Shown in pieces: positions 832 through 27,611 of a stretch of DNA of 64,000 bases. This stretch comes from Magnetovibrionaceae bacterium (lineage in GTDB: Bacteria > Pseudomonadota > Alphaproteobacteria > Rhodospirillales > JBMYSY01). The stretch is from the NCBI GenBank assembly GCA_049603795.1, contig JBMYSY010000011.1, forward strand, positions 920 to 64,919. The letters are read 5' to 3'. The translations under genes and the position numbers were made by a program. Under the pieces are notes generated by a model. It did no database searches and was not told where the DNA came from. It worked only from the letters and a program-made list of their open reading frames with translations. Position 1 is the stretch's first letter, and each line of letters starts with the position of its first letter.

Positions 832-971
832 CTTTTGGTAGCACCTCTGTCACAGAGCGTTGTTAAGAATTGTTACAAGACGTCTGGACAACGATCCGGC
901 AGGCCCCATATGGGTGGGTACGACCACCCGGGACCACCAACAAAACAACCCCGGTAGGGGAGAGGTATCAC

Positions 972-1388: not shown

Positions 1389-1579
1389 GCCCTGGCGTGC
1401 AGGGCCGGTTGGGATAACACGATAGGCACCCTGGCGGACCTTTCCGCCCGTAGCAGCCAGCGTTAAGATGATCGCGGTGATTCTGTTCGCAGAGCCACCG
1501 CGATTTTTTTTGATCCAAACCCGTGCACGCCGGGGGCCTGTCCGTTCCGTGCCGCATTTTTTTGGGGTGTGCTTCTCTC

Positions 1580-2227: not shown

Positions 2228-2511
2228 GGGTACGCCGTGGGGCGAACGAAGTTGACCCGGAACCCGGTGGCAGTCGCGATCAGTCTTCTCGTCTCTCCTG
2301 TCCCTGTGTGGTTGTCCTTGCAAACACGGGGGCACTGGCACTGGCCTGAATCTAGCCCGGATGGCTAGGTTTAAGCCTGGAAAATCAATTGATTGAAGAC
2401 AAGGTGCTGGAAATCGAGTAGAAAACGGTCAAGAGTGGTACAGGGGCAGGTCGCAGGGCCTGCGAAACGGCCCGCAAGACGGCCCGGGGATGAGCATTTG
2501 GGGACTGGCAG

Positions 2512-5500: not shown

Positions 5501-5580
5501 ACGTCGCCAAATTTGATCGTGAAGCACTGGTGAGCACCATTGCCGATACGGTTGCCATGGCGAGTGTGACGCGGAATTGA
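2512..5580 (+). CDS. cheA: Hybrid chemotaxis histidine kinase CheA (Hpt, acidic repeat linker, dimerisation/HATPase, two CheW-like domains, C-terminal receiver)
   Basis: Domains read from the translation: Hpt motif RLVHTIKGTCGFLG; HATPase blocks (HMVRNSADHG, DDGRGL, GRGVGMDVV); two consecutive CheW-like segments (FAVPQISVLE.., LLIFRAGGQELKAVPL..); and a REC domain (RVLLVDDSPFFR..DVIISDIEMPGMSG..KF). Confidence 0.95.
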   Translation: MDDLLSEFLTETSESLAVIDVELVKFEQNPNDADILSNIFRLVHTIKGTCGFLGLPRLESVAHAGENVLGKFRDGALEVTPDAVTLILRCIDTIRDLLAELEETGQEPDGDDSEIIAQLNDMAEGKYHAAPAAAAPAADPVPAPAPAVEDTPFPVAKELLDEVAEAEAAGVTAASDAQMVAEMEAEGASDAGPAEDTPFPVAKELLDEVAEAEAAGVTAASDAQMVAEMAEESAAEQAPATPAPPAPAPTPPAVAAKPPAPVKKDAGPPAEKKEHKESSIAASSIRVNVDVLENLMTLVSEMVLTRNQLLQMIRGKDDSEFAAPLQRLSLITTDLQEGVMKTRMQPIGNAWAKLPRIVRDLSVESGKKIELKMLGAETELDRQVLELIKDPLTHMVRNSADHGLEDLQGRRAAGKPETGTITLNAFHEGGHIIIEIKDDGRGLNLDKIKEKAIANGVATEAEMENMADQQIYQFIFAAGFSTAEKVTSVSGRGVGMDVVRTNIEKIGGTIQLKSVPGKGSTFTIKIPLTLAIVSALIVECGGERFAVPQISVLELVRASNNSEHTIEMINNSPVLRLRNRLLPLVSLRELLALDALKAEKERASEVQLIKQRKADALSQATANGFSEEEAAQIAAAAAEGDDTEGLDMDMGLKRTSDEVFIVVTQVGNYTFGIIVDRVFDTEEIVVKPTAPILRDIPFYSGNTILGDGSVIMILDPNGIAASTGQAGMQGDGEAEAQMSAQQALQDETTSLLIFRAGGQELKAVPLALVARLEEVDMAETESAHGNMLVQYRGRLMPLVPFNDYHEWKSEGRQPILVFTEGEHSMGLVVDEIVDIVEDKLKVELSADAPGLIGSAIIAGKATDVIDAGHFLTRAFPDWFGANQNEGFDTIGGNSDGRRVLLVDDSPFFRNLLSPLLSVAGYQVTSVESAEGALDMRERGYEFDVIISDIEMPGMSGFEFCADVRSDERWREIPMVALSSHATERDFERGREVGFNDYVAKFDREALVSTIADTVAMASVTRN
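2956..3198 (+). repeat. Two copies of a 105-nt (35-aa) module inside cheA, separated by 33 nt
   Basis: Copies 2956-3060 and 3094-3198 both encode EDTPFPVAKELLDEVAEAEAAGVTAASDAQMVAEM. They differ at 16 nucleotide positions, all synonymous. Confidence 0.95.
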
Positions 5581-5891
5581 GGCGAAGCTGAACAGGCGGG
5601 CTGATTGGCCGTTCAAAAGGGTATTATCTGCGCTTGGCAACCGGGGGGCGGCATGAGTACTGTTGTCAGGACGCCCATTGGTTAAAAACAAGGGCCAGGG
5701 GTGATCCCGGGATATGGCCTTGGGTGTTCGGCACTTACGTGTCCGACGCGCGGGTGCGTACGATGCTCGGGGGTCGGCTAAGAGAACAGAGCGACCGAGG
5801 CAGGAGTCCTCTTCGGATCAGGCCTCGGGTGACCACCTGGGCGCGAGAGGCGCTCTGGTCAAGGGAAGCAGTTGGGGAAGCGAAGGTAGTC

Positions 5892-6257
5892 ATGAAATCT
5901 TGTTTGATCGTTGATGATTCCAAGGTCATCCGGATGGTCGCCCGGAAAATCCTTCAGGAATTGGAGTTTGGTACAGTCGAGGCAGCGGACGGCCAACAGG
6001 CGCTGGATGCCTGCAAGTCCAGTATGCCGGCAGCCATTCTGCTCGACTGGAACATGCCAGTCATGAGTGGGATCGAATTCCTGCGGGAGCTGCGCAAACT
6101 GCCGAGTGGCGGGGATCCTATTGTCGTATTCTGCACCACGGAAAACGACATTGAACACATCCAGGAAGCCATCGAAGCCGGTGCCAACGAGTACATCATG
6201 AAGCCCTTCGATAGCGAGATTATCCAGGCGAAGTTTTCCCAGGTTGGGCTTCTCTAG
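5892..6257 (+). CDS. cheY: Single-domain response regulator CheY
   Basis: The 121-aa protein from ATG 5892 (MKSCLIVDDSKVIRM..LLDWNMPVMSG..YIMKPF) is a complete receiver domain. The upstream part of ORF 5634..6257 is Arg/Trp-rich and not protein-like. Confidence 0.9.
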   Translation: MKSCLIVDDSKVIRMVARKILQELEFGTVEAADGQQALDACKSSMPAAILLDWNMPVMSGIEFLRELRKLPSGGDPIVVFCTTENDIEHIQEAIEAGANEYIMKPFDSEIIQAKFSQVGLL

Positions 6258-6275
6258 GCCATCGGGGACACGTTC

Positions 6276-7478
6276 GTGGGCATTGATACGCAAGGTAGAT
6301 CGACCGAAAGCAGCCCGTCTGGCGACGTCACCAGAGTGATGATCGTCGACGATTCGGCTGTTGTACGCGGTTTGATTTCGCGCATGGTCGATGGCGAAGC
6401 GAATTTTAAGGTCGTTGCCTCGGTTGGAAATGGCCAGATGGCGGTCAGCAACCTGCAGCGCAATCCCGTTGACGTGATTATCCTGGACATCGAAATGCCG
6501 GTGATGGACGGCCTGACCGCCATACCGAAGCTTTTGGAAGTTGATCCCGAGGTCAAGATCGTCATGGCCTCGACCCTGACCGTACACAACGCCGAGATTT
6601 CCATGAAGTGCCTGGCAGCGGGGGCCTGCGACACGATTGCAAAGCCTTCGTCGTCCCGCGAAATTTCCGGCGGTGTGGACTTCCGTGATCTGTTGCTCCA
6701 AAAAGTCCGCTCGTTGGGCGAGGCGCGAAAGAAGGCCGGGAATCGTCGCGGTGGCGGCACGGCACCGGCACGCCGCGTGCCATTTTCGCGACCGGGCACC
6801 ACACCCGCATCGGGTACGCCGGCATCGTCACCTTCGCCAAAACCCTCGTTGTTGTCGCCGACCGAGCCGGTCAAGGTCCGCCAGCCGGGCCGCCAGAAGC
6901 CAGAGATCCTAGCAATCGGATCCTCCACCGGCGGGCCACAGGCTCTGTTCGTTTTCCTGAAGGCCTTGGACAAGAATATTCGGGTTCCGATCGTCATCAC
7001 CCAGCATATGCCTAAGACCTTTACGACCATCCTGGCGGATCACATCAACCGCATGACGGGCTGGCCATGCGAAGAAGCGACAGACGGCATGTCTTTGCAG
7101 CCGGGCAGGATCGCGCTGGCGCCCGGTGACTACCACATGACCATCGAAGGCAGCGCAGCATCGAAGACCCTTCGACTCAATCAGGATCCGCCGGAGAATT
7201 TTTGCCGACCGGCTGTCGATCCGATGTTGCGCAGTGTTGTGAATGTCTACGGCGGTAAGGCTGCCGTTGTCATTCTGACCGGCATGGGTTCCGACGGGTG
7301 CAAGGGGGCCTCCAAGATCGTGGAGGCCGGGGGTACGGTGGTTGCTCAGGATGAGGAAACCAGCGTTGTTTGGGGTATGCCGGGTGCTGTGGCACAGGCA
7401 GGCCTGTGTTCAGCTGTTCTGGCGCTGGATGATCTGGCGCCCTATGTGAACAGGCTATTGGGTAGGGGCGTGGCATGA
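6276..7478 (+). CDS. cheB: Protein-glutamate methylesterase CheB (REC plus methylesterase, long Pro/Ser linker)
   Basis: It has a REC domain (MIVDDSAVVRG..ILDIEMPVMDG) and CheB catalytic blocks (IGSSTGGPQAL, ITQHMP, GMGSDG, AQDEETSVVWGMP). The start is GTG 6276 (GGGGA RBS) or ATG 6339. Confidence 0.92.
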   Translation: MGIDTQGRSTESSPSGDVTRVMIVDDSAVVRGLISRMVDGEANFKVVASVGNGQMAVSNLQRNPVDVIILDIEMPVMDGLTAIPKLLEVDPEVKIVMASTLTVHNAEISMKCLAAGACDTIAKPSSSREISGGVDFRDLLLQKVRSLGEARKKAGNRRGGGTAPARRVPFSRPGTTPASGTPASSPSPKPSLLSPTEPVKVRQPGRQKPEILAIGSSTGGPQALFVFLKALDKNIRVPIVITQHMPKTFTTILADHINRMTGWPCEEATDGMSLQPGRIALAPGDYHMTIEGSAASKTLRLNQDPPENFCRPAVDPMLRSVVNVYGGKAAVVILTGMGSDGCKGASKIVEAGGTVVAQDEETSVVWGMPGAVAQAGLCSAVLALDDLAPYVNRLLGRGVA

Positions 7479-9330: not shown

Positions 9331-9521
9331 GAATCGACTTGTCCAAAAACTTAGTCAAGTCTTAAGCATTTGTTAACCATAATTTACGTATTTTGGCACG
9401 GCGTTGTTTTCTAAGGATTATTTGAATCGCTCGATTCGTCTCAGATTCATGTAAGGACTCGCAAGTGGTTCATTTTTGCCCCCGATTCGCAAAAATAAGG
9501 CCCCGATTCGTTTGGCGATTC
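9331..9521. promoter_or_regulatory. Cluster of eight GANTC (CcrM-type methylation) sites, including four CGATTCG heptamers
   Basis: GANTC sites start at 9331, 9424, 9433, 9444, 9456, 9484, 9505 and 9517. CGATTCG starts at 9432, 9483, 9504 and 9516. The palindrome GAATCGCTCGATTC spans 9424-9437. Confidence 0.6.
9362..9380. promoter_or_regulatory. Canonical CtrA box TTAA-N7-TTAAC (TTAAGCATTTGTTAACCAT)
   Basis: TTAA lies at 9362-9365, a 7-nt spacer follows, and TTAA lies at 9373-9376. The second half extends to TTAACCAT, the extended CtrA half-site. The box sits 48-62 nt upstream of the ctrA GTG, in the ctrA-fliI divergent region. Confidence 0.6.
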
Positions 9522-9562
9522 GGTTTACCTTTAATTTGACCGCTTCAAAGAAGGATCCAGCC

Positions 9563-10963
9563 TTGGCTCTTCATGTCTCAAGCATCCTGAACGACATTGA
9601 ACGTATTGCGGATAAGCGAGTCGAAGGGCGCGTTTCCGCTGTCGTTGGGCTGATGGTCGAAGTGGCGGGCGTTGATGGGGTGCTGTCGATCGGTGATCAG
9701 TGTGTGATCCATGGACGCCATGGCGGACGGGTGGTTTGCGAATGCGTCGGGTTCCAGCGCGGCAAGGCGCTTTTGATGCCCTTTGGCTCCCTTGACGGCA
9801 TCGGGATCGGCTGCAAGGCGGAGGTTGGCCTGCAGGAACCCACGATTTCCCCCGACCACGGCTGGCTGGGCCGCGTCGTCAACGCCTTCGGTGATCCGAT
9901 TGACGGGCTGGGCCCTCTGCCGGCGGGTCGCCTCGCCTATCCCATCAAGGCGACGCCTCCATCCGCGCATGCTCGCCAGAGGGTTGGCGGCAAGGTCGAT
10001 CTGGGGGTTCGGGCGATGAACACTTTTCTGACCTGCTGCAAGGGCCAGCGGCTCGGCATCTTCGCCGGATCAGGCGTCGGCAAGTCGACGCTGCTGTCGA
10101 TGATGGCCCGTCACACGGATGCCGAAATCAACGTCATTGGCCTGATCGGTGAACGAGGGCGGGAAGCGCGGGAGTTCATCGAGGATAACCTGGGCCCGGA
10201 AGGGCTCGCGCGTTCCATCGTCATTGTGGCCACGGGGGATGAACCGCCGCTGATGCGCCGCCAGGCGGCCTATCTGACGCTCTCCGTCGCTGAATACTTC
10301 CGGGATCAGGGACACGACGTGCTCTGCATGATGGACAGCGTGACGCGCTTCGCCATGGCCCAGCGGGAAATCTCGCTCAGCGTGGGTGAGCCCCCGGCCT
10401 CGAAGGGCTATACGCCAAGCGTCTTCGCCGAACTACCGAGACTTCTTGAACGTGCCGGGCCGGGGCCGGAGGGGTCGGGCAACATCACGGGCCTGTTTAC
10501 CGTGCTCGTCGAGGGCGACGATCACAACGAGCCGATTTCGGATGCGGTACGTGGCATTCTGGACGGTCACGTCGTATTGGATCGCGACATCGCGGAGCGG
10601 GGGCGGTATCCGGCCATCAACGTTCTGCGCTCGATCAGCCGGACCATGCCGGGCTGCAATACGCCCGAACAGAACGAAGTGGTCAGCCGGGCCCGCCGCC
10701 TGATGGCGACCTATGACAACATGGCGGAATTGATCCGGCTGGGGGCCTATCGCGCGGGCTCCGATCCGGCGGTGGATGAATCGATCCAGTTCAATGCGGG
10801 CCTTGAGAGCTTCTTAACCCAATCGTCCGATGATCCTACAGGTCTCGATGCCGGATATGCCCTTCTCGCAGGTGTACTCGGCATGCCGGCCCCGCCGCCT
10901 CAACAGGTGGCGCAACAGGTGGCAGGGCCAGCTCAAGCGATGGATTTCGGCGAAGAAAGTTGA
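9563..10963 (+). CDS. fliI: Flagellum-specific ATPase FliI
   Basis: It has Walker A GSGVGKST, Walker B-like VLCMMDSVTRFA, and the F1/FliI-type body. The maximal ORF starts at TTG 9476. TTG 9563, preceded by AAGGA, gives a typical 466-aa FliI and leaves the GANTC array non-coding. The start remains uncertain. Confidence 0.9.
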   Translation: MALHVSSILNDIERIADKRVEGRVSAVVGLMVEVAGVDGVLSIGDQCVIHGRHGGRVVCECVGFQRGKALLMPFGSLDGIGIGCKAEVGLQEPTISPDHGWLGRVVNAFGDPIDGLGPLPAGRLAYPIKATPPSAHARQRVGGKVDLGVRAMNTFLTCCKGQRLGIFAGSGVGKSTLLSMMARHTDAEINVIGLIGERGREAREFIEDNLGPEGLARSIVIVATGDEPPLMRRQAAYLTLSVAEYFRDQGHDVLCMMDSVTRFAMAQREISLSVGEPPASKGYTPSVFAELPRLLERAGPGPEGSGNITGLFTVLVEGDDHNEPISDAVRGILDGHVVLDRDIAERGRYPAINVLRSISRTMPGCNTPEQNEVVSRARRLMATYDNMAELIRLGAYRAGSDPAVDESIQFNAGLESFLTQSSDDPTGLDAGYALLAGVLGMPAPPPQQVAQQVAGPAQAMDFGEES

Positions 10964-10980: not shown

Positions 10981-11409
10981 GTGGCGTCAGACTTGAAGAA
11001 CCTGATCAAACTCGCGGAATGGCGGGTGGACGAGAAGCGCCGCCGGTTGGGCGATTTTCTGCGCATGCTCGACGACCTCCATGATCGGGCACGCCGCCTG
11101 GAACAGGAAATGGTCCGCGAACAGGCGGAAGCGCTTCATGCCCCTACCGAGGCGGGTCTGTTTTACGGCACCTATGCCAACCAGGTGATCGCGCGGCGCG
11201 AGCGCATCCAGGAAACCATCCGCATGACCGAGGCCGAGGTCGATAAGGCCCGGGAAGAGCTGGCCGAAGAATTTCGGGACCTGAAGAAGTACGAACTCGC
11301 CCAGGCCGCCCGCGATGAGAAAGAAGCCCTCGAACAATCCCGCCGCGAACAGGCCTTCCTGGACGAACTCGGCATGCAGGCCCATCGGCGGAAGGCCGGT
11401 GGGTATTGA
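10981..11409 (+). CDS. fliJ: Flagellar export chaperone FliJ-like coiled-coil protein
   Basis: This 142-aa, charged, all-helical protein lies immediately downstream of fliI (GTG start). The position and composition are typical of alphaproteobacterial FliJ. Confidence 0.65.
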   Translation: MASDLKNLIKLAEWRVDEKRRRLGDFLRMLDDLHDRARRLEQEMVREQAEALHAPTEAGLFYGTYANQVIARRERIQETIRMTEAEVDKAREELAEEFRDLKKYELAQAARDEKEALEQSRREQAFLDELGMQAHRRKAGGY

Positions 11410-11497
11410 CGTCCGAGAAGAGTTTCACTACTTTTTGATGTGCAGAAAGGATTTTGCGATCAAAAGTGTTTGTTGACTTGATGAAGAGGTCCCGGAA

Positions 11498-12040
11498 ATG
11501 TCCACTACCTCAACTCGTTTCGAGCGGGCAACCAAATCGAACGGGCTTCTCGAGACCTTGTTGGACCGGTGGCGTGGGCAGTGCGAGACGTATAATGAGG
11601 ATTTTGATGACTATTCCCCAGAGCATATGAAGCATGCCCTGGAGATTGCAGCAGAGAATCCACCAGATCAGCGATACGGCATATATGTTTTGAACGATGG
11701 GGGAGAGTTTTTTGGTCTGTCTCACTTCAATCGCGCTCAGGTGAAGCGTACGACAGGCTGGACACTCAGGATTCACTGGACGTTGATGGCACCCCGCTTC
11801 GACTTCGAAGAGCAAAGTTTGGAAGATATTGCCGGAGTCACTGCGGATGTGCTCTACGCGGCTATCAAGGTTGCGGAAACCGAGTTGCCATGTGATCACA
11901 TCAAGTTTCATCTCAGCGGCATACCTGATCGACGGTACCTTTATGGCGTTGCTACTGGCCTTAAAATCGGAAGAATTTTTGGTGACGTCGAATACAGTGG
12001 TAACTGGCTGACACTCTCCGATTTGAATACAGGGCCTTGA
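11498..12040 (+). CDS. Hypothetical protein (orphan, lower-GC islet)
   Basis: The 180-aa ORF has a GAGG RBS. Its GC is visibly lower (about 49 percent by eye) than the flanks. No family was recognised. Confidence 0.55.
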   Translation: MSTTSTRFERATKSNGLLETLLDRWRGQCETYNEDFDDYSPEHMKHALEIAAENPPDQRYGIYVLNDGGEFFGLSHFNRAQVKRTTGWTLRIHWTLMAPRFDFEEQSLEDIAGVTADVLYAAIKVAETELPCDHIKFHLSGIPDRRYLYGVATGLKIGRIFGDVEYSGNWLTLSDLNTGP

Positions 12041-12185
12041 AACGACCGCATTTGCGAACTACAAAGTGTCAAGAGGAACGTTAATCTTTTGCATCTTATG
12101 ATCGAATAACGGACGATTGTGCCGCTAAAACTGCTAATAAACGGCCCCTATAGAAGGGCTGCAGCGACCGTGGGAGCCCGACACC

Positions 12186-12329
12186 ATGACTGACCAACAG
12201 CTATACTGCAAAGTCTTTGCGGCTTGCCTCAAGGCTGCCGTTGAAAACCCAGACAGCGCCCGTAACTTATCTTGGTTCCGTAAAAACATGATGGTCTGTG
12301 CGGGTGAGAAGGAAAAAAAGGCTGCCTAG
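12186..12329 (+). CDS. Possible 47-aa small ORF in the lower-GC islet
   Basis: The ATG..TAG ORF encodes MTDQQLYCKVFAACLKAAVENPDSARNLSWFRKNMMVCAGEKEKKAA. A 7-bp hairpin (AAAGGCT..AGCCTTT) follows. There is no homology evidence. Confidence 0.2.
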   Translation: MTDQQLYCKVFAACLKAAVENPDSARNLSWFRKNMMVCAGEKEKKAA

Positions 12330-12488
12330 CCGAGGAGCCTTTAGTCGAGTTCCGCCTGGAAGCTTAGGCGTATCCCGTCGGGTTAGCAGTTTCTGGCAGT
12401 TCAGGAGCCTGTCTATATAATTCGGCGTGCTGCGTAATACGCGAATGCACTACACAGATTCAACATTGCTTGAAACTTGCCGAGGACC

Positions 12489-13232
12489 ATGCCCACTGTC
12501 CTTATCACCGGCGGCAGCCGAGGCATTGGTGCCGCAACCGCCCGGCTGTTCGCCGAACGCGGGTTTGACCTCTGCTTCAGCTATGTGTCGGACGAAGCAT
12601 CGGCAGGGCGCGTTGTGGCCCAGTGTGAAGCCCTCGGACGACGTGCTCTGGCCCTAAAGGCGGACGTTGCCGACCCCGGCCAGATCAGGGCCCTGTTCGA
12701 GGCCTGCCGGGAGACCTTTGGTGGGCTCGATGTGCTGGTCAACAATGCCGGTATCGTCGGCGCGAGAGGCCGGTTCGAGGATCTCAACGGCGACGACATT
12801 CGCCGCACCTTCGACGTCAACGTTTATGGCCTGATTGCCGCCTGCCAAGCGGCCATTCCCCTGATGTCAACCCGCCAAGGGGGCCAAGGCGGGGCGATTG
12901 TGAACCTGTCGTCCATCGCCGCCACCTTGGGGAGCCCCGGTGAATATGTCCACTATGCGGCCTCCAAGGCGGCTGTGGATGCGATCACCATCGGGCTCGG
13001 CAAGGAACTGGGCCCGGAGGGCATCCGGGTGAACGCCGTCCAGGCCGGCACCACGGATACCGACATCCACGAGCGCGCAGGTAACCCCGAACGCCCGGCC
13101 ATGGTGGCCGCAACATCTCCGGTGGGCCGTTGTGCCGAGGCGGGAGAGATCGCCGAAGCCATCTATTGGCTCGCTTCGGATCAGGCGTCCTACGTCACCG
13201 CCAGCGTGATGCGCGTCGGCGGTGGGTTATAG
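12489..13232 (+). CDS. SDR-family oxidoreductase
   Basis: It shows TGGSRGIG, NNAG, and the YxxxK motif (YAASKAA). It is a classical 247-aa short-chain dehydrogenase starting at ATG 12489. Confidence 0.9.
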   Translation: MPTVLITGGSRGIGAATARLFAERGFDLCFSYVSDEASAGRVVAQCEALGRRALALKADVADPGQIRALFEACRETFGGLDVLVNNAGIVGARGRFEDLNGDDIRRTFDVNVYGLIAACQAAIPLMSTRQGGQGGAIVNLSSIAATLGSPGEYVHYAASKAAVDAITIGLGKELGPEGIRVNAVQAGTTDTDIHERAGNPERPAMVAATSPVGRCAEAGEIAEAIYWLASDQASYVTASVMRVGGGL

Positions 13233-13664
13233 GCCTTCCAGCTTCGCCGATAAAAACGCCCGCAGATCCACGACCTCTTTGTGGACCAATGAGACATAGA
13301 CCAGGTTCATGTTGGTCCGCTCCCGGACCATCTCACCGGTGAACGGCAGGTAGCTGAGCGCGCCCCGGCCGAATGAGGGTGAGGCGCTGCCAACCTGCCA
13401 TTCGGTCGAGAGTTGCACATCTACCAGCTTTAGCGATTCATCACCCTCGTTCTCGCCCGCGATCTCGAACGGAATGTTGGCGAGCCGCAGGTAGGCCATC
13501 TTGTCGGCGGCCTGGACGAAGCCGTCGATGAACTGGGCGGTCAGTACCTGCAACTCAGCCGCCCGGTCCGGCTCCTCCATGTGGCTGAGCAGATGGTCGC
13601 CGGTGTAGTGGTTGTGATGATGGTGGTGGTGAGTAGACCCGTGTTTCACGCCGTCATGTGGCAT
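13227..13664 (-). CDS. His-rich small protein (N-terminal HGSTHHHHHHNHYTGDH), function unknown; candidate metallochaperone
   Basis: The 145-aa ORF has a start that overlaps the stop of the upstream arginase-fold gene by 11 nt. Its N-terminus carries a His6 run plus 5 more His. The remainder matches no family I recognise. Confidence 0.65.
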   Translation of the reverse strand: MPHDGVKHGSTHHHHHHNHYTGDHLLSHMEEPDRAAELQVLTAQFIDGFVQAADKMAYLRLANIPFEIAGENEGDESLKLVDVQLSTEWQVGSASPSFGRGALSYLPFTGEMVRERTNMNLVYVSLVHKEVVDLRAFLSAKLEGL

Positions 13665-14901
13665 TGGACCAGCGCTCCCCTTCGAATTCGCCCGCCGGAA
13701 TGCGCACCGGCTTGTCGATCAGGCCCTTGTGGGCACCGAGCTTGCCGTTGGCGACCATGGAACCCAGCACGTCGACGACGATCCGCGTGCCCATCAGGGC
13801 GGTGATGTCGGACTGGTCATAGGGCGGGGAGATTTCCACCACTTCGATGCCGCAGATCCCTTCAGCGGCGACGGTGGATGCGATGGCCAGCGCCTCGCGC
13901 GGCAGGAAGCCGCCCGGTTCCGGCCAGCCTGTGCCGGGCACGAAGCCGCAGTCGATGCTGTCGATGTCAAAGGACATGTAGACCATATCGACGCCGTCCC
14001 AGGCCATCTCGAGGGCCATCTCGGCGACCTTGGCGGTGCCCAGCTGTTCCACGTCCGACATGGTGATGATGTTGGTCTCGCGTTCGCGCGCGACGGCCAC
14101 GGCTTCGCGGGGGACCTGCCAGCCGCCGATGCCGATCTGCACTAGGTTCTTGGCCGGTACGTTCGGCAGATTGGTGGCGTGGAACCAGGGTGTGGTGTGC
14201 ATGCGCTCGTCCAGGTCTTTTTCCTGGATGTCCGCATGGCGGTCAAAGTGGATGATGCCGATCTTCTTCGATGTACATTCGGCGAGACCCCGCACGGTGG
14301 GAAAGCCGATGGAGTGGTCACCACCGATGATGATTGGCAGCGAGCCTGTCGAGAAGACATGAGAGCAGGCGCGGCTGATCTGGTCGAAAGTCTTTTCGAT
14401 GTTGCCGGGGATGGTGAAGACATCGCCCGCATCGCAGAGCGTCATTTGCTCGCGCAGGTCCACCGACATTTCGTAGTTGTACGGCGTATAGAGCGCGGAG
14501 ATCCGCCGCACGGCCTGGGGACCGAAGCGGGTGCCGGGGCGGTAAGTGGTCCCACCGTCAAAGGGCACGCCCAGGACGGTGGCATCATACTTCGCCACTT
14601 CGGCCACATCTTCGGTGTAGGGTGCCTTCAGGAAGGTGTTGATGCCGGCATAGTGCGGCAGTTCGCCACGGGCGAAGGTCGGGATGGATTTGTCGTCCAG
14701 GCTGTCAGAGCCGGTAAGGCCCATCTTGAGCGCCCAGGCACGCTCTTTCTCCCATTCGCCACCGGGTAGGTTGGCTTCGTCCTGCATCGCCTTCCAGCCG
14801 CGCAACTTGCGCAGGTCCGGGTGGTGGTAGCGTCGCTCTCGTTCCCGGTTATCCGATTGATGGCGCGCGGTCGTGCGCTCAAACGGTTGGAAGAGTGTCA
14901 T
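13654..14901 (-). CDS. Arginase/agmatinase/ureohydrolase-family hydrolase (candidate guanidine hydrolase)
   Basis: It carries the metal-ligand blocks of the arginase fold: IIGGDHSIGF, HFDRHADI, SFDIDSIDCGF and EVVEISPPYD. It is 415 aa. Its start overlaps the ABC ATPase stop. Confidence 0.9.
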   Translation of the reverse strand: MTLFQPFERTTARHQSDNRERERRYHHPDLRKLRGWKAMQDEANLPGGEWEKERAWALKMGLTGSDSLDDKSIPTFARGELPHYAGINTFLKAPYTEDVAEVAKYDATVLGVPFDGGTTYRPGTRFGPQAVRRISALYTPYNYEMSVDLREQMTLCDAGDVFTIPGNIEKTFDQISRACSHVFSTGSLPIIIGGDHSIGFPTVRGLAECTSKKIGIIHFDRHADIQEKDLDERMHTTPWFHATNLPNVPAKNLVQIGIGGWQVPREAVAVARERETNIITMSDVEQLGTAKVAEMALEMAWDGVDMVYMSFDIDSIDCGFVPGTGWPEPGGFLPREALAIASTVAAEGICGIEVVEISPPYDQSDITALMGTRIVVDVLGSMVANGKLGAHKGLIDKPVRIPAGEFEGERWSNAT

Positions 14902-15649
14902 AGGTTTCCTCGCTTATTTGAAAGGGGATGCCGCCGTCGCGGGCATCGAAGTCATAGGTCACGGTAGCCCCGTAGGCGGCCGGGTCGTGTTCGTCCCAAC
15001 GCGGCTTGTCGAAAACCAGGACCCGGTCGCCGAGCTTGAAGCCCTCGGACAGGTCGTGCGTTACCATAAAGACGGTCATGGGTGATTCTGCGCGAAGTTC
15101 TGTGAGGAAATCGTGCATCTGAATCCTTGTGCCGGGGTCCAGCGCCCCGAAGGGCTCGTCGAGCAGCAGAATGCGCGGCTTCGCCATCAAGGCCTGACCG
15201 ATGGCGAGGCGCTGCTGCATGCCGCCGGATAAAGCCGACGGATAGGCCTTGGCCACATGCGACAGGCCGATGCGGTCCAAAACGACATCGGCCTCTTCGC
15301 TGGCCGCCCGTTTGGCCGGGCCGAACAAACGACCGAGGGGGCCAGTGGAAAACTCCTTCGCCGCGATCAGGTTGCCCTTGACGGTCAAGTGCGGAAACAC
15401 GGAATAGCGCTGGAAAACCACGCCCCGGTCCTGGCCGGGCTCCGTGGCGGGTTCGTTCCCGTCGATGCGGATTTCGCCCCTGGTCGGCGTTTCCTGGGCC
15501 AGCAGCATGCGGAGGAAAGTGGATTTGCCGCAGCCAGAGGCCCCGACGATGGAAACGAAGCTGCCCTCGTCCACATCCAGATTGACCCGTTCCAGGATCG
15601 GTCGGTTGTCGTAGTCCTTAAAGACGCCGCGTACGCTGACAAGGCTCAT
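14879..15649 (-). CDS. ABC transporter ATP-binding protein (NitT/TauT-type)
   Basis: It has Walker A GASGCGKST, the signature LSGGMQQRLAIG, and Walker B LLLDEPFGALD. It overlaps the permease stop by 4 nt. Confidence 0.92.
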   Translation of the reverse strand: MSLVSVRGVFKDYDNRPILERVNLDVDEGSFVSIVGASGCGKSTFLRMLLAQETPTRGEIRIDGNEPATEPGQDRGVVFQRYSVFPHLTVKGNLIAAKEFSTGPLGRLFGPAKRAASEEADVVLDRIGLSHVAKAYPSALSGGMQQRLAIGQALMAKPRILLLDEPFGALDPGTRIQMHDFLTELRAESPMTVFMVTHDLSEGFKLGDRVLVFDKPRWDEHDPAAYGATVTYDFDARDGGIPFQISEETYDTLPTV

Positions 15650-16458
15650 AGCGAGGCTCCTGCCCAGGGGAACAGTCGTTTGGACAACCGGTTCAGCAGC
15701 CAGTCGATGACGAAGGCCAGTGCGGTGATCCAGACGACGTAGTTCAGGATGATGTCCATGGCGAGATATCGCCGAACCAGGAAGATGCGATACCCGAGAC
15801 CGGAATCGGAGGCAATCGCCTCGGAGGCGATGAGGAACAGCCAGGCCGGCCCCAGCGACAGCCGTACGGCCTGTATAAGCCTCGGCAGGACCTGGGGAAG
15901 AGCGACGCGGAGCGCGATTACAAGGCTGGTTGCACCGAGCGTCTGGGCCTTCACGATCTGCTCGGTCGGTATTTCCCTCGTCCTTTGGGCCATGTCCCGG
16001 ATGAGAAACGGCGTTATGCCGATGGCAATCAGCGCGATCTTAGAGATCTCGCCCAAGCCGAATATGATGAAAAGAATGGGTAGAATGGCCAGCGGCGGCA
16101 CCATCGACAGGACCGCTATGAAACCGGCCAGGGTCGCACTGACGAAGGGCAGCAGGCCGATGGCGAGACCCAACCCTAGGCCAATGACCGCTGCCACACC
16201 AACGCCCACGGCCAGGCGTTGCAGGCTGATCACCGTGTCATTCCAGAACAGAATTTCGCCTGAGCGCCGGTCGGGCTGACTGATCAGCCGGGTGGCGGTG
16301 TCAACGATCTGGGCCGGGCTCGGCAGCAGTTTGTCGTTTGGATTGTCTGCACGGCGAATGTCGGATGCGACCGCATAAGCGATCAGCACCGCGAGGAAGG
16401 GCAACACTAAAAGTGCCAGCGCCACCCCTTTCTTCGGTGTTCGATTTATCAGTCGCAT
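15646..16458 (-). CDS. ABC transporter permease (NitT/TauT-type)
   Basis: It is a 270-aa polytopic membrane protein in the BPD_transp_1 style. It sits between the binding-protein and ATPase genes. Confidence 0.9.
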   Translation of the reverse strand: MRLINRTPKKGVALALLVLPFLAVLIAYAVASDIRRADNPNDKLLPSPAQIVDTATRLISQPDRRSGEILFWNDTVISLQRLAVGVGVAAVIGLGLGLAIGLLPFVSATLAGFIAVLSMVPPLAILPILFIIFGLGEISKIALIAIGITPFLIRDMAQRTREIPTEQIVKAQTLGATSLVIALRVALPQVLPRLIQAVRLSLGPAWLFLIASEAIASDSGLGYRIFLVRRYLAMDIILNYVVWITALAFVIDWLLNRLSKRLFPWAGASL

Positions 16459-16488
16459 CCGATTCTATCCCGCACTTGTGGTTGAACC

Positions 16489-17607
16489 TCAGAGTTCGCC
16501 TGCGACAGCCATTTCCATGTAGGAGGTATCAAACCGCAGCTTGACGTTGTTGGCGTCACCCGTGACAGAGCCATCCGGATAGGACACACCGACGAAGTCC
16601 GGGCTCGGCGCGCCTTCGCCCAGGATGCCCTTCTCGAACAGGAAGTTGGCAACGCTGACCATGGTCGCTGGCAGGGTCGGGTTCTTCACAAAGCCGACGG
16701 CGTGCTGGGGCGTGTAGAACATCTGAGTGGAGGCCAGTTGGGAGTCATAGCCTGCCAGATCGGTCCCCGAAGCTTCGGCCATCGCGGTACGGGCTGCAGC
16801 ACCTTCAGGGCTGTTGCTGGCCATGATGCCCATCAGTTCGTACCAGGCACCGACCAGGGCCTTGCCGAAGTTCGGGTTGGCGGCCAGGGTTTCGGTGTTG
16901 ACCACCATCATGTCGATGATCTCGCCCGGAATGTCGGAACTGTCAAAAAGCTTGGTCGTGCCCGGCGTTTCCAGAATCGTGGAAACCAGCGGGTTCCAGG
17001 TGACGACAGCTTCCACCTCGTCCGTACCGAAGACGGCGATCATGTCGGCGTCCGAGGTGTTGATGACCTTGGCGAGGTCGGCCTCGCTCAGGCCCACGGT
17101 ATCCAGGCCGCGCGCCAGCAGGTAGTGGGAAACAGAAAGCTCCACCAGATTGACCGGTTTGCCCTTCAGGCTGGCGAGGTCGCCTTCGCCCTTCAGGATA
17201 ATCGCGTCGTTGCCGTTGGAATAGTCGCCCACGATCAGTGCCGTCGTATCGATCCCACCGGCAGATGGGATGGAAAGGGTGTCCATGTTCGTGGCGCTGA
17301 CGCCGTCGAACTGGCCTGCCGTGTAAAGGTTGATGGATTCGACGTAGTCGTTGATCTGAACGATCTCGACGTCGATGCCGTATTTTTCGGCCCATTTGTC
17401 CATGATGCCGCTGGTCTCAAGATAGCCCCAGGGCATCCAGCCCACATAGATCGACCAGGCGACCTTGAAGGAGGTCTTCTCCTGGGCAACCACAGGGGCT
17501 GGCGCGGTGGCAAGTCCGAGGCAGAGGGCGGCGGCGGCCAAGGCCGACGTCAGATTTTTCTTCAGCGCCGAAAGAGGGGCGGCGAGCGTTTTAAGCGATT
17601 GAGTCAT
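16489..17607 (-). CDS. ABC transporter periplasmic substrate-binding protein (NMT1/NitT/TauT-like)
   Basis: ATG 17607 is preceded by GGGAGA. The signal peptide is MTQSLKTLAAPLSALKKNLTSALAAAALCLGLATAPAPVVAQ. The longer six-frame ORF (to 17793) runs through the riboswitch and is rejected. Confidence 0.88.
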   Translation of the reverse strand: MTQSLKTLAAPLSALKKNLTSALAAAALCLGLATAPAPVVAQEKTSFKVAWSIYVGWMPWGYLETSGIMDKWAEKYGIDVEIVQINDYVESINLYTAGQFDGVSATNMDTLSIPSAGGIDTTALIVGDYSNGNDAIILKGEGDLASLKGKPVNLVELSVSHYLLARGLDTVGLSEADLAKVINTSDADMIAVFGTDEVEAVVTWNPLVSTILETPGTTKLFDSSDIPGEIIDMMVVNTETLAANPNFGKALVGAWYELMGIMASNSPEGAAARTAMAEASGTDLAGYDSQLASTQMFYTPQHAVGFVKNPTLPATMVSVANFLFEKGILGEGAPSPDFVGVSYPDGSVTGDANNVKLRFDTSYMEMAVAGEL

Positions 17608-17699
17608 GAAGTCGGTCTCCCGCTTTGTCGTCCCGCCAAACAAGGGTGACGGACCGCCGGCGGAACAAAAGAGAAAAGGGGGGCGGAGGCGGCCCGACG

Positions 17700-17835
17700 C
17701 AGTTCTCTCCCGGGATTTTGTCCCGCCGTGTACCGCCCGGAATCTGCCGAAGCGGCGGCGTCTCTCGGACCAGTCTTTTCCCATTCCACCCATCAGGAGG
17801 AGGGCGGGAAAACGGAACCCTAGACGCCCTGCACC
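17700..17835 (-). promoter_or_regulatory. Guanidine-I riboswitch (ykkC-yxkD motif, subtype 1)
   Basis: The minus-strand RNA reads GGCGUCUAGGGUUCCG..CUGGUCCGAGAGACGCC..GGUACACGGCGGGACAAAAUCCCGGGAGAG. All three invariant ykkC blocks are present, with a closing P1 helix (GGCGUC/GACGCC). It lies about 95 nt upstream of the binding-protein ATG. Confidence 0.88.
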
Positions 17836-17981
17836 AACAACTCTGACGCAGCTGCAAAAACCGAGTCAAGCAGTCAATGATGCCTTTTTGAGCAAACTTG
17901 AATTTCGGGAAACAGTTGCATCAATGTTGGGCATGCTTTCCGGTGTTTGTTTGTTTTGGCGGCAGACTGTGGGCGTTATAT

Positions 17982-18018
17982 ATTGATAAGATCGATTATT
18001 TATATCGATTTCATCAAT
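17982..18018. promoter_or_regulatory. 37-nt AT-rich inverted repeat (candidate operator) in the divergent region between the riboswitch operon and the peroxiredoxin gene
   Basis: The sequence is ATTGATAAGATCGAT-TATTTAT-ATCGATTTCATCAAT. The 15-nt arms match at 13 of 15 positions around a 7-nt spacer. Confidence 0.35.
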
Positions 18019-18162
18019 TCACTTTGGTGTTGTGAGCGCCTGCAAAAAAGCTAACTCTGCAGGTGCGAACGGGGGAGCCGGCGCGCCGGGGAGCGGCGAG
18101 AGCAAGGTTGGCCCAATCCGCAGAAACACGATTGATCAACCCCAGCAGAGAGGAACATTCCC

Positions 18163-18699
18163 ATGATTGGACGTACCCTTCCCCAAGTCACCTTCCGGAC
18201 CCGCGTGCGCGATGAAAGCATCGAAGGCCCGAACCCCTTCCGGTGGGAAGACAAGACCACCGACGACTACTTCAAGGGCAAGCGCGTTGTCCTGTTCAGC
18301 CTGCCGGGTGCCTTCACGCCGACCTGTTCCACCTATCAGCTGCCGGACTTTGAGAAGCTCTTCCCGGATTTCCAAGCCAAAGGCATCGACGCCATCTACT
18401 GCCTGTCGGTGAACGACGCCTTCGTGATGAACGCCTGGGGCAAGGGCCAGGGCCTGGAAAACGTTGGTCTGATCCCGGACGGCTCCGGCGAGTTCACCCG
18501 CAAAATGGGCATGCTCGTTTGTAAGGATAACCTTGGCTTCGGTATGCGCTCCTGGCGCTATGCGGCTATCGTCAACGATGGCGTTGTCGAAGGCTGGTTC
18601 GAAGAGCCGGGCTACGAAGACAACTGCGAATCCGACCCTTATGGCGAATCCTCTCCGCAGAACCTGCTGGAGAAGCTGGACGCCTTGAAAGCGGCCTAA
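18163..18699 (+). CDS. Peroxiredoxin (Prx5/PrxD-type, AhpC/TSA family)
   Basis: It has the LFSLPGAFTPTCS peroxidatic Cys motif. The 178-aa body is typical of Prx5-like peroxiredoxins. Confidence 0.92.
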   Translation: MIGRTLPQVTFRTRVRDESIEGPNPFRWEDKTTDDYFKGKRVVLFSLPGAFTPTCSTYQLPDFEKLFPDFQAKGIDAIYCLSVNDAFVMNAWGKGQGLENVGLIPDGSGEFTRKMGMLVCKDNLGFGMRSWRYAAIVNDGVVEGWFEEPGYEDNCESDPYGESSPQNLLEKLDALKAA

Positions 18700-18738
18700 T
18701 TCGATTTCCCTGCTGGAGATCGGATCTGTCGGGTGTTT

Positions 18739-19143
18739 TTACACCCGGCGGATCCGGCCCAACAGATGCCGGTTGTCCCAGCGCGGCTGGCGGTCCTCAA
18801 GAATCACTTGGTAAGCAGGCCCGCTTTCGTCTGCCTGAGCCTCAGTCAAGATGATCTGAAGCCAGCGCGGCACGAGTTCATTATTCAAGTCGTCGCGGAT
18901 TAAAACAGCTATTTCTTCCAAATTGCTCTGTGGAGGTCTTAAGCTGCTCAGCATAGTATCGAAACTTTTAAGCCAGTATTTTACAGAATAAATATCGAGA
19001 ATGAGCTTGTCCGGTACGTACCATAAATCGACTGAGCGCTGGCCTATCTTGAGGTCTCTGAAGGTGACGATATAGTCTTTTTGTATTTCCGGATTGGGCT
19101 TAGTTTCGAGCCGTTCCCGTCTTTGCAACGCGTCCTCAATCAT
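18739..19143 (-). CDS. QueF-like T-fold protein lacking the catalytic Cys (function unknown), low GC
   Basis: WYVPDKLILDIYSVKYWLKSF and LEEIAVLIRDDL resemble the QueF signature (YIPD..[9 protein letters not shown].SF .. HE..). The position of the CPxTGQPD Cys reads DLKIGQRS. It overlaps the upstream gene by ATGA. GC is about 40 percent by eye. Confidence 0.45.
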   Translation of the reverse strand: MIEDALQRRERLETKPNPEIQKDYIVTFRDLKIGQRSVDLWYVPDKLILDIYSVKYWLKSFDTMLSSLRPPQSNLEEIAVLIRDDLNNELVPRWLQIILTEAQADESGPAYQVILEDRQPRWDNRHLLGRIRRV

Positions 19144-20858
19144 ACCGTCAGCCCCTCGCCTGGTCGCCGCAGTCGTTCTCCCTGCGACCGAACTTCGATA
19201 AAGCCCGGCGGTTGGGCCTGGAACAGTACGCCACCCTCGATCCCCGTGATCTCGCCCGCTTCGCGGAAGATCTCGCGGATGTGGTCGCGCATGCGCCCCG
19301 GCAGCGGTGCATCGGAGCGGATGATCAGGTCCAGCTGTTGGATTTCGCCTCGCTTCTTGACCATGCCATCGAGTTGCAGGTGACCGAGCTTGGTCATCTC
19401 CAGATCGACAACAAAGCGTGTTCCTTCGTCTCCCTTGTTGCCCTCTTCGTCTTCCTCGCCACCGAAGTTGCGGGTGTGGAAGCGGACCTGGCTCAGCTCC
19501 TCGCCGTTCATGACCGGAACGGCCACCGTCCGCCAGTCCCCCTCGCGGGACTCTTCCGAGCCCGTCTTCAGGCGCTGGAAGTCCCGATCCAGCCGTCCTG
19601 CGATTGTCGGGTTCAGCCGTGTCAGGCGGTCAAGGCCCTCGCCCAGAAGCGCCCGCATGTCGCCACCACGCAGGACGCTCATGAACAACAGCATTCCGGC
19701 CCCCAGTGCGGTGCCGTCGGCGCGCGGCAGGGCGCGGGCGACCTGTTGGAAGGCTTGGGGGTCCGCTGACTCCAGGGTCTTCAAGGCAGTGCGAAGGGCC
19801 GGCCATTCCCGTTGCAGATTGGCGAGCTCTGCCTCGGCGAAGGTGGCGGGCAGGGTCAAGGGGGCCGGGCCGGTCGGGCTTGTGCTGACCTTGAGTTGAA
19901 GGCTGCTGCCCACCTCCAACCCGGCGGCCTTGGCTGTTCCCAGAACCAGGCCCCGTGCTTCCAGGATGGCGCTGCCGTCCGGGGTGAGGCCGGTGACCCG
20001 GGCCGTGATCAGACCGCCCGGTGCAAGTTGGCCCGGTGCCGCCGTCGGTTGGGTGGCGAGGGCACCGCCGGCACCGCCGCCTGGGGCCTCTACCTTGATG
20101 ACCTGGGCGGAGAACTGACTTCCCGCTGGGACCGGCACACCGCGGCTGCCCGCCTGGGGGGCCTGGCCTTGCGCGTTCCCGGACTGCCCCTGCCGGAGGG
20201 AAGGGCCTGCGGATTGGGCTGTCGAGGGTTTGCCGGGAACTGGTGCCGTGCTTTGCTGGGTCTGTCCGTTGGAAGAGCTGGCCGTTGAAACTCCCGCCGG
20301 ACCGGACGAGGCGGCCAGAGGGGAGGCACCTTGGCCGGTTGCTGATGGGATCGTTCCCGTTTGCCCGGCCAAAGGAGCACCTTGTCCAGAAAATGGGCGC
20401 AGCACGGTAAGCCCAACGGTCTGGCCGGCGTTGAAGGTCGGTGATCCACCGGGTGCTGTCTGGGCGGCCCCTGCCTGCAGGCCGCCTTGGCTCAAGGCTC
20501 CGGTCAACTTGGGCCCGCCGGCCTGGAGACCGGCCAATTGTCCCGGCTCAGGTGGTTTACCATTGATTTTCAGGATGGCGAGCTGCAGCTGGTTGCCGGC
20601 GCGGGTGACCTGAAGCTGCAGGGCTGTCTGTTGGGGCAGGGTAAGTCCGGTAGCCAGTTGCGCAGGGCCGAGGGGGGTCTGGATTGAGGTTTGGCCATTG
20701 GCCGAATTGCCGAGGATTGTCGCCGTCAGTTGGGCCGCGAGGGGCAGTTTGGCCAGCGCCGGGGGCGGGTTCGCCACCAGGACCACCGGCTGTGTCGCTT
20801 TCGCGGTCGGCGGCGGCGCAGGTGATTGGACGATCGGCGGCGGGACCTGGGTGCTCAT
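19140..20858 (-). CDS. Pro/Gly/Gln/Ala-rich protein with C-terminal FliK-like (Flg_hook-type) domain
   Basis: It is a 572-aa protein with a low-complexity N-terminal two thirds. The C-terminal FVVDLEMTKLGHLQLDGMVKK..LDLIIRSD..IREIFREAGEITG follows the hook-length-control C-domain pattern. It is the last-but-one gene of the flhA-flhF-flhG operon. Confidence 0.5.
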   Translation of the reverse strand: MSTQVPPPIVQSPAPPPTAKATQPVVLVANPPPALAKLPLAAQLTATILGNSANGQTSIQTPLGPAQLATGLTLPQQTALQLQVTRAGNQLQLAILKINGKPPEPGQLAGLQAGGPKLTGALSQGGLQAGAAQTAPGGSPTFNAGQTVGLTVLRPFSGQGAPLAGQTGTIPSATGQGASPLAASSGPAGVSTASSSNGQTQQSTAPVPGKPSTAQSAGPSLRQGQSGNAQGQAPQAGSRGVPVPAGSQFSAQVIKVEAPGGGAGGALATQPTAAPGQLAPGGLITARVTGLTPDGSAILEARGLVLGTAKAAGLEVGSSLQLKVSTSPTGPAPLTLPATFAEAELANLQREWPALRTALKTLESADPQAFQQVARALPRADGTALGAGMLLFMSVLRGGDMRALLGEGLDRLTRLNPTIAGRLDRDFQRLKTGSEESREGDWRTVAVPVMNGEELSQVRFHTRNFGGEEDEEGNKGDEGTRFVVDLEMTKLGHLQLDGMVKKRGEIQQLDLIIRSDAPLPGRMRDHIREIFREAGEITGIEGGVLFQAQPPGFIEVRSQGERLRRPGEGLTV

Positions 20859-20908: not shown

Positions 20909-21703
20909 TCAATCGGGCTCCGACGTCAGCAGCTTGGCGATGGCTTCGACGTCGCTGGCGGCCTCGGCATTGGGGTAGCGGGTCAGGATCGGTGCCTGAT
21001 TGCGGATCGAATCCGGCACCTTGGTGTCACGGCGCACAATGCCCAAAAGCGTCGGTTTGAATTTCAGGAAACCCTCGCAGGCCTTCTTCAGCGTGTTGAA
21101 GGTCTTTTCGCCTTCCTTGACTGAATTGGCCATGTTGACCACGACCCGGATGTCCGTGCCGGGGCGCTCCATGCGCGTCAGCTTGATGAAGGCGTAGGCA
21201 TCGGTTAGCGATGTCGGCTCGTCGGTGACCAGCACGATGCAGGTATTGGCGAGGCCGGTCAGCTGCATGACGTTCTTTTCGACCCCGGCACCTGCGTCGA
21301 TGATCACATGATCATAGCCGGTCGCCAGCAGGCCCAATTCTTCGCCCAGGACGGTCAAACGGGAGGGGGCCACGTTCGCAAGGCCGCCGGACCCAGAGCG
21401 CCCGGCAACCACGTCAAAGCCCCCGTCTTCAAAGTGATCGACGGACTTGTCCAATTGGATGCGGCCCGCGATGACGCTGCCTAGGTCATGCTTCGGCATC
21501 AGGCCCAATTGGATGTCCAGGTTGGCCAAACCGAGGTCACCATCGAACAACAGCGTCTTGGCCCCCAGTTTTGTCAGGCATTGGGCGAGCGTGATCGAAA
21601 ACCAGGTCTTCCCCACGCCTCCCTTGCCGGAGGCTACGGCGAAGATGTTGCGGCCTTTGAGGCGGGCGGTGGGCGAGGGCGCAAAGGGTTTGGCGGTCGT
21701 CAT
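20909..21703 (-). CDS. flhG: MinD/ParA-family flagellar number/placement ATPase FlhG (FleN)
   Basis: It carries the deviant Walker A ASGKGGVGKT and has MinD-like architecture. It overlaps the flhF stop by 4 nt. Confidence 0.85.
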   Translation of the reverse strand: MTTAKPFAPSPTARLKGRNIFAVASGKGGVGKTWFSITLAQCLTKLGAKTLLFDGDLGLANLDIQLGLMPKHDLGSVIAGRIQLDKSVDHFEDGGFDVVAGRSGSGGLANVAPSRLTVLGEELGLLATGYDHVIIDAGAGVEKNVMQLTGLANTCIVLVTDEPTSLTDAYAFIKLTRMERPGTDIRVVVNMANSVKEGEKTFNTLKKACEGFLKFKPTLLGIVRRDTKVPDSIRNQAPILTRYPNAEAASDVEAIAKLLTSEPD

Positions 21704-22689: not shown

Positions 22690-22768
22690 GGGGCTCTCTC
22701 CCTCCAAGCGGGGTTCACATCTAACGTACCGTCAAAATGTGGTATCGCCCAACCTAAAGGACAAAACG

Positions 22769-24907: not shown

Positions 24908-24945
24908 GGTTATAGAAGGTTGCCTTGATTATGGGAGATGACCGT

Positions 24946-27594: not shown

Positions 27595-27611
27595 GGGCTG
27601 TGCGTCCTACC

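Follow-up and report, generated by a model that had tools for sequence, protein, structure and literature searches.

We analysed a 64,000-nucleotide stretch of the genome of a Magnetovibrionaceae bacterium (contig JBMYSY010000011.1 of assembly GCA_049603795.1; hereafter the window) and found that the last gene of its guanidine operon, at 13227..13664 on the minus strand, encodes a His-rich protein of 145 amino acids (plus a stop codon) that belongs to a previously undescribed family without detectable homology to known families or folds. The gene lies directly downstream of a gene for guanidine hydrolase (GdmH), and the same holds for 90 of 91 related loci, the exception being a locus whose sequence breaks off 16 bases ahead of the gene. 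Guanidine hydrolase, recognised only recently as a Ni enzyme, enables bacteria to use guanidine as a nitrogen source. On balance, the arrangement and sequence of the family suggest that its members, referred to below as GdmH partners, are probably dedicated accessory proteins of the Ni-dependent GdmH that supply it with Ni.

The first-pass annotation of the window, made from the letters alone, had described this open reading frame (ORF) as an orphan and a possible new metallochaperone family, translationally coupled to an arginase-fold hydrolase, and its description of the gene itself proved accurate. The partner gene (ATG at 13664) has its first 11 nt in common with the end of the arginase-fold gene (13654..14901, minus strand), the junction being AATGCCACATGA, and a Shine-Dalgarno-like AAGGGGAG read from the sequence (13675..13682, minus strand) is located 10 nt upstream of the ATG, inside the end of gdmH. 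At its 3' end, the partner gene shares 6 nt with a convergent short-chain dehydrogenase/reductase (SDR) gene (12477..13232, plus strand). Both overlaps agree with the ORF coordinates, and the count of 11 His among residues 1-28 agrees with the sequence, the N terminus being MPHDGVKHGSTHHHHHHNHYTGDHLLSH. Because His accounts for 1.1% of 13 neighbouring proteins, the binomial probability of at least 11 His in 28 residues is ∼8e-15. Residues 1-28 (13581..13664, minus strand) form the N-terminal His-rich tail seen in an alignment of close relatives (A1), which is the proposed Ni-binding part of the protein, and residues 32-145 (13230..13571, minus strand) form a conserved folded core in the AlphaFold 2 (AF2) model, the putative GdmH-docking domain. 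The window protein contains no Cys.

The arginase-fold gene product upstream (415 amino acids; Pfam Arginase, E 6.5e-77) was compared with the PDB using phmmer. It matched the Synechocystis GdmH Sll1077 (7esr/7oi1) with 537 bits (E 1.9e-160) and the Nitrospira inopinata guanidinase (9fek) with 528 bits (E 1.5e-157), whereas its matches to all other PDB ureohydrolases reached at most 170 bits; further, it scored below the NCBIfam cut-offs for agmatinase, hutG (formimidoylglutamase) and arginase. On these scores, we assign it as a GdmH orthologue and not as a generic agmatinase. The first-pass annotation had also linked the hydrolase to a ykkC element, and the operon 5' leader indeed contains a guanidine-I (ykkC) riboswitch aptamer at 17705..17834 on the minus strand (Rfam RF00442, full-length model match, E 4.5e-13, 82 bits versus a gathering score of 63). 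Between the aptamer and gdmH, also on the minus strand, lie the genes for the periplasmic substrate-binding protein (16489..17607; NCBIfam TIGR03427 ABC_peri_uca, E 3.6e-158; Pfam NMT1 and NMT1_2), the permease (15646..16458; Pfam BPD_transp_1, E 1.2e-18) and the ATPase (14879..15649; Pfam ABC_tran, E 3e-34) of an ATP-binding cassette (ABC) importer. The substrate-binding protein likely starts with MTQSLKTL at 17607; a longer ORF, reaching 17793, would enter the riboswitch. All five genes from 17607 to 13227 are on the minus strand, separated by short gaps or overlapping, with the partner gene last, and the window has no opposite-strand gene between the aptamer and the partner gene. A promoter/terminator scan of 12900..18100 revealed nothing informative.

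Co-occurrence with arginase-fold genes in other genomes, a check proposed in the first-pass annotation, was strict. Among the 80 genome loci fetched, 79 include upstream sequence, and each of these 79 encodes a GdmH orthologue directly upstream of the partner (77-87% identical over full-length matches). Similarly, in 11 metagenome loci of distant partner subfamilies that were examined for GdmH, it was found immediately upstream in all 11; the partners in these loci are 28-47% identical to the window protein, and their GdmHs are 72-77% identical to the window enzyme. These distant partners include types with a C-terminal His tail, with GHN..QWQTPH motifs and with few His residues, and the riboswitch and ABC importer are also present in the C-terminal-His loci. 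The importer genes precede gdmH in the genome loci wherever the contig allows, the substrate-binding protein of related loci shows 68-82% identity, and nhmmer detected a guanidine-I riboswitch upstream in 71 of 80 related loci, with Rfam matches in L003, L075, L086 and L090-L092. gdmH and the partner gene overlap by 11 nt in 44 loci and by 1 nt in 5; in the remaining loci, they are 1-917 nt apart, and the MPHD start of the partner protein is retained. The larger gaps hold a gene resembling AhpD/carboxymuconolactone decarboxylase (L014, L048 and L062) or a metallo-β-lactamase (MBL)-fold gene (L054).

The inserted AhpD-like gene (L014, 4388..4792; L048, 7592..8011; L062, 7622..8011) was named by eye, encodes ∼130 amino acids and itself overlaps the partner ATG by 11 nt; the MBL-fold-like gene between gdmH and the partner gene in L054 was likewise named by eye. 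In L086, a single operon has a guanidine-I riboswitch (1321..1424) before the binding-protein gene and a second one (4961..5065) before the permease gene, with a BBP2 porin-like gene and a Lactamase_B (MBL-fold) gene between them.

We also looked for other genes that accompany the pair. Within 4.5 kb upstream and 5 kb downstream of the operon, the 80 loci revealed no hypA, hypB, ureG or other conserved gene; the commonest neighbour was an unrelated two-domain ABC ATPase gene on the opposite strand (23 loci). In the window, no Ni-related Pfam family was found among 39 ORFs, a set made up of the proteins of the operon and the SDR (six in all) together with the ORFs scanned between 11.5 and 58.8 kb. 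In one metagenome contig (L089), a QWQTPH-type GdmH-partner pair adjoins a full ureABC-ureEFGD operon (718..6336, Pfam), and the partner is kept. Urease genes also adjoin the pair in L075 (Inquilinaceae), where they were seen only as an Rfam match to the 5' ureB small RNA (10468..10755). Such proximity of urease genes fits a route from guanidine via urea to ammonia.

The partner is no orphan. Homologues of the window protein form 507 clusters (90% identity, E≤1e-3), all named "hypothetical protein" and mostly originating from Rhodobacteraceae/Paracoccaceae and marine metagenomes, and a relative is encoded in 390 of 185,579 species-representative genomes, most of them of the Roseobacter group and other marine Alphaproteobacteria. 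A profile of the core domain retrieved 141 representatives (50% identity clusters, E≤1e-3) from 1.84 billion representative proteins, and one C-terminal-His variant occurs in 181 blocks of a public assembly collection, with Tara among the sources. The first-pass annotation could name no family for the protein, and this holds for Pfam and NCBIfam: no NCBIfam model matches the window protein, Pfam scans at E≤1 of 38 diverse members and of the window protein yielded no family, only scattered chance matches, and no listed homologue carries a precomputed Pfam domain. Sequence profiles built from A1 and from the diverse alignment A3 matched, in the PDB, only the His-tags of unrelated entries. A description of the family was not found in the searchable literature, the coverage of which excludes Funck et al. 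(2022), the original report on GdmH. Thus, of the initial proposal, the orphan status falls, whereas a new family that is probably one of metallochaperones is the best reading.

Within the family, close relatives (A1) share an MPHD start, a linker of His, Asp, Gly and Pro, a (G)HNH...DHLxSH motif (DHLHSH in close relatives) and the core. MPHD opens 114 of 120 close homologues, in which the tail comprises 20-70 amino acids with 5-26 His (45% His overall), and an M-H or M-P-H start is found in 21 of 31 representatives with an N-terminal tail and in nearly all close members. The initiator Met is normally removed when the second residue is Pro, Ser or Ala, so the mature partner would begin with X-His (MPHD becoming Pro-His-Asp); in members with an M-H start, His is already the second residue. 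MPHD could have arisen merely from the overlap with the stop region of gdmH, but we rejected this because the motif persists where the genes are 16-917 nt apart. One distant group has no N-terminal tail and a His-rich C terminus (P0158, P0161, P0164, P0168, P0170, P0174 and P0186), and another combines an N-terminal His tract with GPGHN and QWQTPH motifs. Overall, among 79 near-full-length representatives, a tail with at least 4 His is N-terminal in 31, C-terminal in 14 and found at neither end in 35 (a total of 80 because P0189 has both). Because the tail sits at one or the other terminus depending on subfamily, the His-rich segment appears to be a property that is retained while its position moves.

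The core presents a different picture. It spans ∼110 residues with the motifs FxxGF..DK..FLRLAGIP, LKLVxV, VGxASPxFGxRELxYxPxP and FVYVS (alignments A1-A3), and its near-invariant positions across all subfamilies are hydrophobic residues, Pro, Tyr and one Asp (F45, D54, L59, P65, L80, P96, P107, P109 and Y123). The VGxASPxFGxRELxYxPxP segment, which includes the nearly invariant P96, P107 and P109, is among the best conserved. No His or Cys in the core is conserved across subfamilies in A3, and the core looks more like a scaffold or docking domain than like a metal site.

The AF2 model based on A3 (m4b3ca8fa0ca1) has a mean predicted local distance difference test (pLDDT) score of 87, with 94-98 per ten-residue block for residues 41-140. 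Its elements are a long (32-51) and a short (55-61) helix, a sheet of five strands (78-90, 92-96, 103-107, 114-124 and 129-133), two of which are long, and a C-terminal helix (134-144), whereas the tail is modelled as disordered (pLDDT 54-59). In a first model, based on a shallow alignment, the VGxASPxFGxRELxYxPxP segment had a pLDDT of 54-57. A Foldseek search with an AlphaFold model had been suggested in the first-pass annotation, and when both models were compared with the PDB nothing significant was found: the best E-value was 0.54 for the first model and 0.26 for the second (core pLDDT >94), and the best TM-scores were 0.25 when normalised to the query and 0.43 when normalised to the target (a 70-residue COMM-domain chain). 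The insignificant top entries were domain-swapped or obligate dimers (cystatin, HU and COMM); with such E-values, these matches were not used as homology.

What would such a protein do beside GdmH? GdmH is Ni2+-dependent and is activated by co-encoded chaperones of the HypA/HypB type, which in Synechocystis are two HypA/HypB-like proteins, GhaA and GhaB (PMC12186494; PMC12704784; PMC11399263). The pairing of GhaA/GhaB with GdmH has been reported for cyanobacteria (PMC12704784), and in comammox Nitrospira the authors could identify no Ni-loading protein (PMC11410670). The best reading of the sequences is that, in the lineage studied here, the partner holds the operon slot and would do the job of GhaA/GhaB as a non-homologous replacement. 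In the mechanism we propose, guanidine would bind the guanidine-I riboswitch and turn the operon on, and the ABC system would import guanidine. GdmH and the partner would be translated from overlapping, coupled frames, presumably in matched amounts. The flexible His-rich tail, including the mature NH2-X-His terminus, would capture Ni2+, the ∼110-residue core would dock on GdmH, and Ni would be passed to the dinuclear GdmH active site. Ni binding, docking on GdmH, metal transfer and independence of a nucleoside triphosphatase (NTPase) are the steps that we infer here. As a type of function, His-rich Ni helpers that are encoded together with their clients are already well known; the novelty lies in the family itself, in its apparent fold and client and in the lack of a linked NTPase.

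The docking site may be sought in terminal extensions of GdmH. The window enzyme carries ERRYHHPD at its N-terminal end (14800..14901) and GAHKGLIDKPV...RWSNAT at its C-terminal end (13654..13740), and partner-linked GdmHs (L001-L092) show ERRxHHPD(F/Y)xK at the N terminus and GxH(K/R)xxIDKPV at the C terminus, the latter followed by ...RWSNAT in the clade with N-terminal-tail partners. The C-terminal motif was present in 48 of 50 tails retrieved, whereas neither IDKP nor HHPD occurred in any of the 120 GdmH homologues nearest to N. inopinata. These clade-specific extensions (e.g. GxHKxxIDKPV) could be the docking site of the partner, or a plain clade marker; together with the VGxASPxFGxRELxYxPxP segment of the partner, they are a candidate interface.

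Comparison with known Ni-handling systems places the partner near several of them by arrangement and apart from all of them by sequence. Like the partner, GhaA/GhaB (Sll1078/Sll1079) are encoded with GdmH in a guanidine-I-controlled operon, and the presumed job of the partner, the Ni loading of GdmH, would be the same as theirs. Unlike them, the partner is one small protein rather than two, has no sequence or fold relationship to either, and has so far been found in Alphaproteobacteria and unassigned metagenome contigs rather than in cyanobacteria. The partner start, MPHD or MH[DE], resembles MHE, the N-terminal X-His-acidic motif with which Ni is bound in HypA-type proteins; however, Pfam scans revealed no HypA domain, and the window partner has no Zn-binding CXXC pairs because it has no Cys. 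In the same scans, no P-loop GTPase domain of the kind found in the SIMIBI Ni GTPases HypB, GhaB and UreG was detected in the partner. Ni ligation by the N-terminal amine and His2 or His3 has been described for HypA (MHE), RcnR and NmtR (PMC7055735). In RcnR and NmtR, an M-(small residue)-H start provides the N-terminal amine and His3 as ligands after Met removal (PMC7055735), yet both are DNA-binding regulators, and the inferred likeness is confined to the first three residues. Overall, the MPHD or M-H start resembles these N-terminal Ni sites in pattern only.

UreE, the Ni metallochaperone of urease, offers a parallel in build: like the partner, it is small and cytoplasmic, combines a folded domain with a variable-length, dispensable-looking His tail (C-terminal in Klebsiella aerogenes) and is encoded with its Ni-enzyme client. 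However, the partner has neither UreE_N (PF02814) nor UreE_C (PF05194), matches no UreE in the PDB by sequence or structure, and has no conserved metal-ligand His in its core. UreE works with the GTPase UreG, whereas the partner has no linked NTPase, and true UreE coexists with the partner family in L089. With CooJ, Hpn and the tails of HypB and SlyD, the partner shares a His-rich, low-complexity terminal segment as its presumed main metal-binding capacity. Unlike these proteins, its core is unrelated by Pfam, PDB-sequence or fold match, and its client would be an arginase-fold hydrolase and not carbon monoxide dehydrogenase, hydrogenase or urease.

Several observations weigh against Ni supply by the partner. 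Urease, hydrogenase and cyanobacterial GdmH all receive their Ni with the help of a GTPase, whereas no GTPase gene is linked to the partner. About 35 of the 79 representatives lack a tail with at least 4 His; in several of these, the metagenome gene call visibly contains a frameshift or starts at the wrong place, but some short forms (P0143, P0171, P0177 and P0203) seem truly tail-less, so the His tail is not universal. The GdmH extensions could reflect shared clade ancestry only. Moreover, the partner is absent from GdmH loci in three other lineages: a six-frame hidden Markov model search found no family member in the Nitrospira-like, Dehalococcoidia and Actinobacteria loci (L093-L096), the lineages of which are the closest to the guanidinase of N. 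inopinata. Because these loci lack the family, the partner is not a general requirement of GdmH. In the Dehalococcoidia (L095, 6001..11953) and Actinobacteria (L096, 6001..13110) loci, GdmH is embedded in a ureABC-ureF(GD) operon with neither ureE nor a His-rich partner and may obtain its Ni there from the urease machinery; the two Nitrospira-like loci (L093 and L094) have neither a urease operon nor a partner.

We hold a stronger form of the proposal to be possible but doubtful. According to it, one small protein with a fold absent from the PDB would be a self-sufficient, NTPase-independent Ni insertase that displaced GhaA/GhaB in a large, mainly marine alphaproteobacterial GdmH clade with co-evolved docking extensions.

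The most serious competitor to Ni supply, although an unlikely one in our judgement, is that the partner regulates or stabilises GdmH or belongs to it as a non-catalytic subunit, its core binding GdmH and serving the folding, oligomer assembly or control of the enzyme, with the tail in a secondary role such as a local metal buffer. The two genes are strictly linked and translationally coupled, which suggests that their products are made in matched amounts; the core is conserved universally, whereas some members apparently lack the tail; and the dimeric nature of the insignificant Foldseek top entries, together with the long strands of the model, hints at a protein-protein interface. Further, some Ni-ureohydrolases, e.g. 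MefH, are heteromeric and require a second, inactive subunit (PMC11399263). However, such a role does not readily account for a His tail kept at either terminus over deep divergence or for an X-His N terminus conserved even where the genes do not overlap, and GdmH functions without such a subunit in other phyla, the orthologues with structures 9fek and 7esr having been characterised in its absence.

We regard it as improbable that the partner is a general storage or detoxification protein for Ni (or Zn/Co) of the Hpn type, which would be co-induced with a Ni enzyme and buffer metal rather than transfer it to GdmH. The length (20-70 amino acids) and His content (5-26 His, up to 45%) of the tail are typical of storage tails, and the absence of a linked NTPase would suit such a protein. 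Nevertheless, a generic buffer needs no strongly conserved folded core, and it is this core, together with the occurrence of the family next to GdmH only (in all 90 testable loci), that makes a general Ni buffer unlikely. In addition, L089 retains the partner although the adjacent urease operon already encodes a UreE.

Slightly less probable again is a metallochaperone for another metal, the alphaproteobacterial GdmH clade then using Zn, Co or Mn. The assumption of Ni in this clade is drawn by analogy with other GdmHs, a further point that weighs against Ni supply; arginase-fold enzymes are usually Mn enzymes, and His-rich tracts bind Zn, Co and Cu as well. Against this, the window enzyme matches, with E-values of 1e-157 to 1e-160, two close GdmH orthologues that have been reported as Ni enzymes (PMC11410670; PMC12623156), and this closeness makes another metal unlikely. 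Imidazole-rich tails are also ill-suited to Mn, and the family adjoins urease genes in L075 and L089. Finally, the view that the ORF is an artefact, or is translated just as a leader or spacer without protein function, could appeal only to the low-complexity N terminus and is refuted by the conservation data (507 homologue clusters, 390 species genomes, many invariant core residues, and conserved position and overlap) and opposed by the confident AF2 fold (core pLDDT 94-98), in line with the first-pass view of the ORF as unlikely to be spurious.

Should the partner indeed supply Ni to GdmH, a new, non-homologous Ni-chaperone fold would join the known set, several hundred "hypothetical proteins" could be better annotated, and a one-gene helper would be at hand for making active recombinant guanidinase. 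The acquisition of Ni by GdmH outside cyanobacteria is an acknowledged gap (PMC11410670), for which the partner family is a concrete candidate in many organisms. If the NTPase-independent insertase proved true, it would be a fourth architecture of Ni-enzyme maturation beside Ure, Hyp and Coo.

In the window, the operon is surrounded by flagellar, chemotaxis and flagellin-glycosylation genes. The region 11420..19100 is a block of unrelated genes that interrupts the flagellar gene cluster and may be an inserted island. In addition to the guanidine operon and the SDR gene (12477..13232), it contains an ORF of 180 amino acids without a Pfam match (11498..12040), in a 1-kb stretch with a GC content of 0.50 compared with ∼0.60-0.65 around it, and a Prx5-like peroxiredoxin gene (18163..18699) named by eye from sequence. 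Long ORFs of the flagellar/glycosylation region without a Pfam match (E≤1e-5) are found at 27612..29063, 32879..34348, 35350..36480, 49072..50061 and 50025..50690. On one flank of the block are two ORFs named by eye from sequence and position, one for a FliI-like ATPase (9476..10963) and one for a coiled-coil FliJ-like protein (10981..11409). The other flank begins with a 572-amino acid ORF without a Pfam match (19140..20858) and continues, at 20909..31868, with genes containing Pfam domains of a ParA/MinD-type ATPase, an SRP54-GTPase (FlhF-like), FHIPEP (FlhA), a sigma-54 activator, MotA, FliG and FliF, the gene names being inferred from the domains.

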